Virus record (IMG/VR): IMGVR_UViG_2537561620_000017
Location: 1-25,587 of that record
Origin: a virus
Taxonomy: Duplodnaviria; Heunggongvirae; Uroviricota; Caudoviricetes
DNA length: 25,587 bases
Direction: 5' to 3' (one strand)
Shown: positions 17,316 through 17,664 of the stretch, one piece after another
Layout of the letters: each line of letters begins with the position of its first letter
Numbering within the stretch: position 1 is the stretch's first letter
Translations under genes and position numbers: made by a program
The notes under the pieces: model-generated
The model's database searches: none
The model's input: only the letters and a program-made list of their open reading frames with translations
Told to the model about the DNA's origin: nothing

Positions 17316-17605
17316 CGAAAATTCTTCTCTTTAATTCCAGCGGCTCTGATAGCTTTCATTACTGCAATTACCGTTTTGTCCTTCCCATCCTCATGCCCCA
17401 TCGCATAAGCACCTTCTTCACCATCTTTCCAAAAGTCGTCATTCGATTCGGGCCAGTCGATATCCAGTTCAATAGCTGCTCGCGGTGCCTGCCATATCAC
17501 CCAGGCAAACTCTTTTAATTCATCGTCTCCTGTGAACTGGCTTTTGTCTTTTGACCACCAGTTTTCAAACTGTCGGTAGCTATCGTTCACTTCCCTCTCC
17601 CCCAA
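17312..17605 (-). CDS. hypothetical acidic, Trp-rich small protein
   Basis: About 97 aa, roughly a quarter Asp/Glu (DIDWPESNDDFWKDGEEGAYAMGHEDGKDK); the track start is TTG and the true start is uncertain. Confidence 0.4.
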   Translation of the reverse strand: MGEREVNDSYRQFENWWSKDKSQFTGDDELKEFAWVIWQAPRAAIELDIDWPESNDDFWKDGEEGAYAMGHEDGKDKTVIAVMKAIRAAGIKEKNFR

Positions 17606-17664
17606 ATAAAAAGGCCTGCGATTACCAGCAGGCCTGCTATTAGCTCAGTGATGTAGATGGTCAT
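17587..17664 (-). CDS. candidate 25-aa hydrophobic peptide
   Basis: ATG immediately after the helicase stop (TAAATG) with a GGAG Shine-Dalgarno 6 nt upstream; encodes MTIYITELIAGLLVIAGLFIWGRGK, a single predicted transmembrane helix. Confidence 0.35.
   Translation of the reverse strand: MTIYITELIAGLLVIAGLFIWGRGK

Follow-up and report, generated by a model that had tools for sequence, protein, structure and literature searches.

The 25-codon hydrophobic open reading frame (ORF) at positions 17587..17664 on the minus strand of the 25,587-nt stretch of DNA analysed here (the window) can be identified, from its sequence and position, as ninA of the lambdoid phages, an already known gene that encloses the intrinsic terminator tR2. 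On balance, we lean towards a dual role for the cassette that carries it, as the tR2 terminator and as a short translated ORF that links its neighbours, with the peptide a tolerated by-product. This matters little as a discovery; ninA and tR2 are ordinary and already described. The locus does, however, carry a caution, in that an apparent transmembrane micropeptide read from raw sequence can be a translated terminator hairpin and U-tract. It also offers a cheap, well-defined test case for the interplay of translation and intrinsic termination within an operon, and our comparative data add modest support for real translation of a 40-year-old orphan ORF.

Identity and signals of the ORF

The ORF, delimited from the ORF list and by reading the sequence, encodes MTIYITELIAGLLVIAGLFIWGRGK, with its ATG at 17664-17662 and its TGA at 17589-17587. 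The TAA stop of the upstream primase-helicase frame (17665..17667, minus strand) directly adjoins the ATG, so that the hydrophobic 25-codon ORF and TAAATG junction of the preliminary description do exist (TAA at 17667-17665). At the other end, the ninA stop overlaps the GTG start of the next gene (17590-17588) as GTGA. A GGAG Shine-Dalgarno (SD)-like element (17671..17674, minus strand) precedes the ATG by 6 nt and falls inside the upstream gene, at its 3′ end; its predicted pairing with the 3′ end of 16S rRNA is -6.1 kcal/mol. As 11% of 15-nt segments in an intact homologue of the upstream gene (L001) reach an equal score, the element is a moderate SD rather than a strong one; the "good Shine-Dalgarno" first described is thus in place at moderate strength. 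A 700-nt stretch around ninA is overlapped by 15 ORFs of 20 aa or longer. The length of the ORF alone is within chance; its conservation is beyond chance.

The ORF occupies a cassette of about 75 nt, running from the ATG to a purine run (GGGGGAGAGGGAAG), that is almost identical to positions 40568-40645 of lambda, the gap between ren and ninB. There, ninA is open over 26 aa, its ATG overlapping the ren stop and its TGA overlapping the ninB start, both as ATGA. The window peptide shows 96% identity to the ORF of lambda and VT2-Sakai and matches phrog_5907 over residues 1-25 (E=1.9e-17). The exact 25-aa peptide is present at NCBI as 'NinA protein [Shigella flexneri]' (CAM3421583.1), a name that makes Shigella a plausible host of the prophage. 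With NinA of lambda and P22 (P22gp53, YP_063725) it shares the core MTIYITEL(I/V)(T/A)GLLVIAGLFIWGRGK. As expected for ninA, it is the first ORF after a replication gene and is linked at both start and stop (TAA-ATG upstream, GTGA downstream); such linkages, and an embedded tR2, are common to NinA of lambda, P22, Sf6, ES18 and epsilon34. Three features set the window copy apart. It is 25 aa long, against 26-27 aa in the lambda and P22 relatives, since the gene that follows determines the tail; it has the change T10A, codon 10 being GCA (Ala) where lambda has ACA (Thr); and its upstream junction is TAA-ATG where the lambda- and P22-type genes usually have an ATGA overlap. The flanks differ as well, with ren upstream and ninB downstream in lambda and, in the window, a toprim primase-helicase upstream and a 92-aa phrog_343 gene downstream.

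The gene was named in 1982 for lambda and P22 (Kröger & Hobom 1982), and both ninA and tR2 have been described since then. In the P22 record, ninA encloses an annotated 'terminator ... similar to phage lambda', the Sf6 record has gene 45 together with 'bsq6; boundary sequence' and 'terminator tR2', and the Nil2 record annotates ninA and tR2. Annotations of ninA are also found in SE1, ES18 (gp63) and epsilon34 (gp54). The nin genes have been called a 'chain of interlinked genes', of which ninA is one link; ninA is counted among the non-essential ones that the nin5 deletion takes out, and its ATGA linkage has been described (PMC8022706, PMC3349717). Because PGAP-annotated E. coli genomes and the lambda RefSeq record omit ninA, the ORF looked unannotated. 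That description is true of those records, but not of the many phage records and the NCBI entry in which NinA is named, and a gene named in 1982 was not an overlooked one.

NCBIfam returned no match for the ninA peptide or for its 92-aa neighbour, Pfam none for the neighbour (the peptide lay outside the Pfam scans), and Rfam no family at the ninA locus. A full-text literature search for the peptide or its DNA gave no match, and the peptide is absent from the small-gene Ribo-seq supplements for O157:H7 Sakai.

The embedded terminator and the hydrophobic frame

In lambda, tR2 is controlled by N antitermination, and it is a standard model terminator. A terminator scan places a copy at 17604..17635 (minus strand), in the codons for NinA residues 11-21. 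It comprises an 8-bp stem with six G-C pairs (AGGCCTGC, 17635-17628, and GCAGGCCT, 17619-17612), an 8-nt loop (TGGTAATC, 17627-17620) and then TTTTTATTT, the T-tract extending to 17604. The centroid fold of the ninA region is this hairpin alone, at -15.7 kcal/mol. Hairpin and T-tract are identical in 32 of 32 nt to lambda 40597-40628, the tR2 template sequence of termination studies (10.1101/2022.08.30.505822), and the identical lambda sequence has a maximum termination efficiency of about 0.9 (PMC4824070). Stem, loop and T-tract are thus the same in both phages and stand in the same place, where the replication genes end and the nin region begins; one base just 5′ of the stem differs, a G in the window for the A of lambda, which is the codon 10 change from Thr to Ala. 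The position is that of an early-right operon, with the primase-helicase upstream and ninB one gene downstream on the same strand. As is established for the identical lambda sequence, the window tR2 would halt unmodified polymerase after the replication genes and would be read through after N-type antitermination.

The conserved cassette ends in the purine run GGGGGAGAGGGAA (17591..17603, minus strand), which is also found before lambda ninB, before P22 ninB and before the 92-aa gene. This run is the SD of the downstream gene and at the same time codes for the NinA tail, (W)GRGK.

The single transmembrane helix of the preliminary description therefore corresponds to a frame that is indeed hydrophobic but whose codons make up the stem, loop and T-tract of tR2, a terminator which the first reading had not noticed. 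T-rich hairpins and U-tracts favour hydrophobic codons, and this is one reason why we think it unlikely that NinA is a functional small membrane protein, with one transmembrane helix and a short basic tail, into whose coding sequence the terminator has been fitted. Such a protein would have a target in the host or phage membrane, acting as a toxin, an exclusion factor or a regulator of a larger membrane protein. In its favour, a hydrophobic frame recurs in three versions, GLLVIAGLFIW in lambda-type cassettes (mean hydropathy 2.5), GAIYTVALFYW in HK97-type cassettes (1.3) and GLSLLMVLTVY in cassettes with an HNH insertion (2.0), while the other frames are polar or contain stops. Substitutions are also mostly conservative (I/V, I/M, T/A, T/S, L/M, L/I, L/F, V/I), and in phiKp_30 the ORF is intact although the hairpin is mismatched and the T-tract broken. 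The conservation of SD elements described below would likewise show that translation is selected. Against these points, L13Q puts a polar residue midway along the supposed helix in at least eight loci and several contexts, a loop change that is neutral as far as the RNA is concerned. The tail varies freely according to which gene follows, part of it being the SD of that gene read as GRGK, the frame is shifted or fused in Sal25 and L269, and in HK022-like phages ninA is split by an HNH gene. Moreover, the nin region is dispensable, as the nin5 deletion demonstrates (PMC3349717), and we found no NCBIfam family for the peptide. We know of no reported phenotype for ninA.

The variants in the stem suggest that the hairpin is under selection of its own. 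Three of six stem variants retain a G-U wobble pair (GGC>GGT in either arm, CTT>TTT), a fourth disrupts the second pair from the base (L268, L279), and two occur in L269, where the HK97-type hairpin carries a compensatory change from a T-A to a C-G pair. L269 (IMGVR_UViG_2778261297_000006) is unusual in other respects: within about 993-1290, a 1-nt deletion fuses the ninA frame to the downstream gene, and beyond the gene so fused the N-terminal sequence of ninA occurs a second time.

More specific membrane roles, as a toxin, a holin or a superinfection-exclusion factor, had been raised for the peptide, and we found no evidence to support them. NinA does share with small type I toxins, holins and Sie proteins a length of 20-35 aa and one hydrophobic helix. 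It differs in that its sequence is dictated by a terminator and that it has neither a promoter nor an antisense RNA of its own; a promoter scan gave no promoter-like site near ninA on either strand. We rejected a type I toxin on these grounds; no Rfam family lies at the locus, and the ORF is embedded in a polycistronic operon. A holin was rejected on position, ninA lying not in a lysis cassette but in the nin region, after the replication genes and before ninB; the hydrophobic helix is the only holin feature present. To our knowledge, no toxicity has been ascribed to NinA.

A combined possibility is that NinA is a real membrane protein and that tR2 within its coding sequence is a selected regulatory design. 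We regard this as quite improbable. If true, non-stop ninA messages ended at tR2 would, through stalled ribosomes and trans-translation, actively shut off the replication genes when there is no antitermination, and read-through transcripts would yield a peptide that acts at the membrane.

Probable translation and linkage across cassettes

To place the window copy in context, we compared 157 cassettes, drawn from phage records, from IMG/VR contigs and from a small number of genomes. All but one of them, 156 in number, have an open ninA frame of 20-34 codons. Because the nucleotides of the cassette are highly conserved, however, this open frame is in itself weak evidence for translation; with such conservation, and with frequent movement of the cassette by recombination, conservation of the ORF is partly automatic.

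A stronger line of evidence comes from the flanks. The cassette is preceded by seven classes of non-homologous upstream gene: ren, the P22 gene-12-type helicase, the HK022/Sf6-type DnaB-like protein, the toprim primase-helicase of the window, ES18 gp62, VT2-Sakai orf28 and one further class. In all seven, an SD-like element lies at -18..-4 relative to the ninA ATG (Fisher combined p=6.4e-8, each upstream gene's own sequence serving as background). As these elements fall outside the conserved cassette, nucleotide conservation does not account for them, and they provide the strongest argument that translation of ninA is selected. Downstream, we distinguished 20 clusters at a 65% identity cut, about 12 of them distinct contexts. 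An overlap or direct contact of the ninA stop with the next start (ATGA, GTGA, TAAATG or GTGGCTGA) is seen in most of these, every common context among them; a small number of rare contexts differ, the stop falling a few nucleotides short of the next start or having no gene nearby.

Variation within the N-terminal codons points the same way. Variants in codons 2-10, which could be sampled without bias by anchoring on the hairpin, comprise 12 distinct substitutions, of which seven are synonymous, against 26% expected, and five are conservative (I5V, T6S, I9V, I9M, T10A); only one of the 12 falls at a second codon position. Read in one alternative frame, six of the 12 would be synonymous, as compared with seven in the ninA frame, and with so small a sample this lean towards synonymous change is only supportive.

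A further comparison is offered by HK97 gp56 and HK544 gp48. These share the first 32 nt and the first 11 residues with the window ORF, and they too contain a terminator-like hairpin and T-tract within a short hydrophobic ORF directly after a helicase gene. The hairpin itself is a different one (GGGGCTATT-TACAC-AGTAGCCC), as is the tail, and the ORF is 32 aa long. In these HK97-type phages, the alternative hairpin is of exactly equal length and keeps the ninA frame open (gp56, 32 aa).

Experimental data are available for the lambda copy. Li et al. (2016, PMC4824070) found that a plasmid with 48 nt of natural sequence upstream of tR2 (W48) expressed an upstream RFP at about half of the reference, and that mutating the NinA RBS or AUG restored expression. 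The lambda NinA RBS and AUG are thus active on a plasmid, and the authors attribute the loss of RFP to non-stop translation on tR2-terminated RNA (PMC4824070). Taking these data together with the comparison of cassettes, we consider that ninA is probably translated.

This bears on the proposal that the ORF is a meaningless by-product, with only tR2 and a boundary sequence, a recombination linker between modules, being functional. The label 'bsq6; boundary sequence' in Sf6 is in keeping with it, as is the structure of the locus, in which a single cassette stands between unrelated flanks with mosaic junctions exactly at its ends. One such junction is at the ninA ATG itself, where homology among the Stx phages begins. 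Nucleotide identity is very high, synonymous sites included, PGAP and the lambda RefSeq record leave the ORF uncalled, and HK022-type phages have the hairpin without a ninA start. Yet a linker of this kind would have no need of SD-like elements at the right distance in seven unrelated genes outside the cassette, of stops that overlap or abut the next start in most non-homologous downstream contexts, or of a frame and length kept through the HK97 hairpin swap, and it does not predict the activity of the lambda RBS and AUG on a plasmid (PMC4824070). We therefore find the proposal improbable.

The HK022-type cassettes deserve closer description. In HK022 and five other sequences (L014, which is HK022, and L022, L075, L085, L094 and L122), the hairpin has no adjoining ninA start. 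Here ninA is interrupted after codon 10/11, ahead of the tR2 hairpin, by a gene for a 203-aa HNH-type endonuclease (in L022, the region 6334-7050), so that the ninA start runs into another hydrophobic ORF of 34 aa, MTIYITELIAGLSLLMVLTVYIIKYILYANKKTN, and the hairpin directly follows the stop codon of the endonuclease. This "hairpin without ORF" might be taken as proof that the ORF is dispensable decoration, but it results from an HNH gene that lies within ninA. As HK022-like phages are viable with a split ninA, neither an intact ninA peptide nor the coupling is essential. The conserved cassette looks like a homing target.

A degenerate N-terminal pattern proved too permissive when run against genome contigs. 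Of the 120 loci it matched, only about 20 were genuine, most of the others being coincidental hits in unrelated bacteria; 14 of the genuine loci were the exact lambda sequence in unrelated assemblies. The search still supplied a few useful variants (from E. albertii and Escherichia sp. E1V33). The exact lambda ren-ninA-ninB sequence occurs in draft genomes (L141, L172, L177, L179, L183, L185, L192, L196, L200, L205, L210, L227, L233 and L248) of bacteria as unrelated as Pseudoxanthomonas, Bradyrhizobium, Nocardioides, Oceanobacillus, Shewanella and Psychrobacter, among others, often on short contigs at about 1x coverage. This is almost certainly contamination of the assemblies with lambda DNA.

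A proposed role and the setting in the window

We propose that the ninA-tR2 cassette is a module of about 75 nt that would join the replication genes to the nin region in the early-right operon, with two functions superimposed. That of tR2 follows from its identity to the lambda terminator, and that of a translated ninA would follow from comparison and one plasmid experiment. The ninA start overlaps or abuts the stop of whichever replication gene lies upstream, and the ninA stop, in most contexts, does so with the first codon of the nin gene that comes next. When polymerase reads through, ribosomes translating ninA could then cross the hairpin and pass on to that gene. Transcripts ended at tR2 lack the ninA stop codon, and on these ribosomes would be expected to stall at the 3′ end, leading to ribosome rescue and decay of the message. 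The N-terminal part of about 30 nt may serve to space the upstream stop from the hairpin so that tR2 works. For lambda tR2, efficiency is maximal once the upstream stop is about 30 bp away, and a nearby ribosome suppresses it (PMC4824070); the distance from upstream stop to hairpin in the cassettes, 25-29 nt, matches this optimum. The hydrophobic peptide would most likely be a tolerated by-product of the constraints of terminator and linkage, not a selected product.

The suppression of tR2 by a nearby ribosome, and the overlap of a short ORF with a terminator hairpin, could also be read as a leader-peptide attenuator, in which the position of the ribosome on ninA decides whether tR2 forms by way of alternative RNA structures. 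We consider this highly improbable. A 101-nt fold contains no antiterminator structure (z=0.16), its centroid being the terminator alone, and the ORF lacks any run of regulatory codons. Only 30 nt separate its start codon from the hairpin, and NinA translation cut tR2 efficiency by only about 10% (PMC4824070). The reading is also at odds with the control of tR2 in lambda. There, as is well established, the controlling event is N antitermination.

In the window, the upstream gene, a toprim primase-helicase with Toprim_2 and AAA_25 matches (17665..20011, minus strand), is a pseudogene remnant. Its first 559 nt have been replaced by an IS3-family element, with the junction at about 20011/20012, and a 1-nt deletion in a T-run near 18776 shifts its frame with respect to the intact gene, a 968-aa homologue in NZ_CP065613 (E. 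coli FDAARGOS_944) to which it is otherwise 99.2% identical with one gap. Since this gene is IS-truncated and frameshifted, the coupling of ninA to the helicase stop, correctly described as a tight start/stop linkage, is a structural relic here; with the operon broken in this way, the whole of the proposed role may be inoperative in the window. The IS3-family element lies on the minus strand with orfA at 20939-21265 and orfB at 20052-20942, and an ALIL frameshift pseudoknot occupies 20868-20984. The central part of the primase-helicase (18681-19958, minus strand) has a sub-threshold Pfam match to Hom_end_hint (E=2.2e-5; 25 bits, where the cutoff is 32), which could be an intein or an intein remnant.

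Downstream of ninA, the 92-aa gene (17312..17590, minus strand) matches phrog_343 (E=5e-27) and corresponds to a 279-nt CDS in NZ_CP065613; in Stx phages it travels with the ninA cassette (VT2-Sakai orf29, Nil2 ORF29). It is followed by ninB, an Orf-family recombination mediator (16905..17315, minus strand; PF05772, E=2.5e-56), and its presence shows that the nin region begins at this locus.

The window as a whole is a decayed composite of prophage remnants, heavily invaded by IS elements (copies of IS3 as well as an IS66 element), in which the ninA cassette is intact. Downstream of the nin genes, two Rfam matches at gathering level, C4 antisense RNA (15800-15887, 80 bits) and isrK (15912-15988, 62 bits), both on the minus strand, lie within or beside an Ash/Rha-type ORF (15182-16198), and the region resembles a P1/P7-type antirepressor control module. 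A second replication module on the minus strand comprises a DnaB-like helicase (11898-13172) and a DnaC/IstB-like loader (13169-14056), and only 3 nt separate the helicase stop from the start of an IS66-family element (9255-11894). Far from ninA, at 2149-2237 on the minus strand, is an Rfam match to sRNA-Xcc1 (68 bits, E=1e-10).
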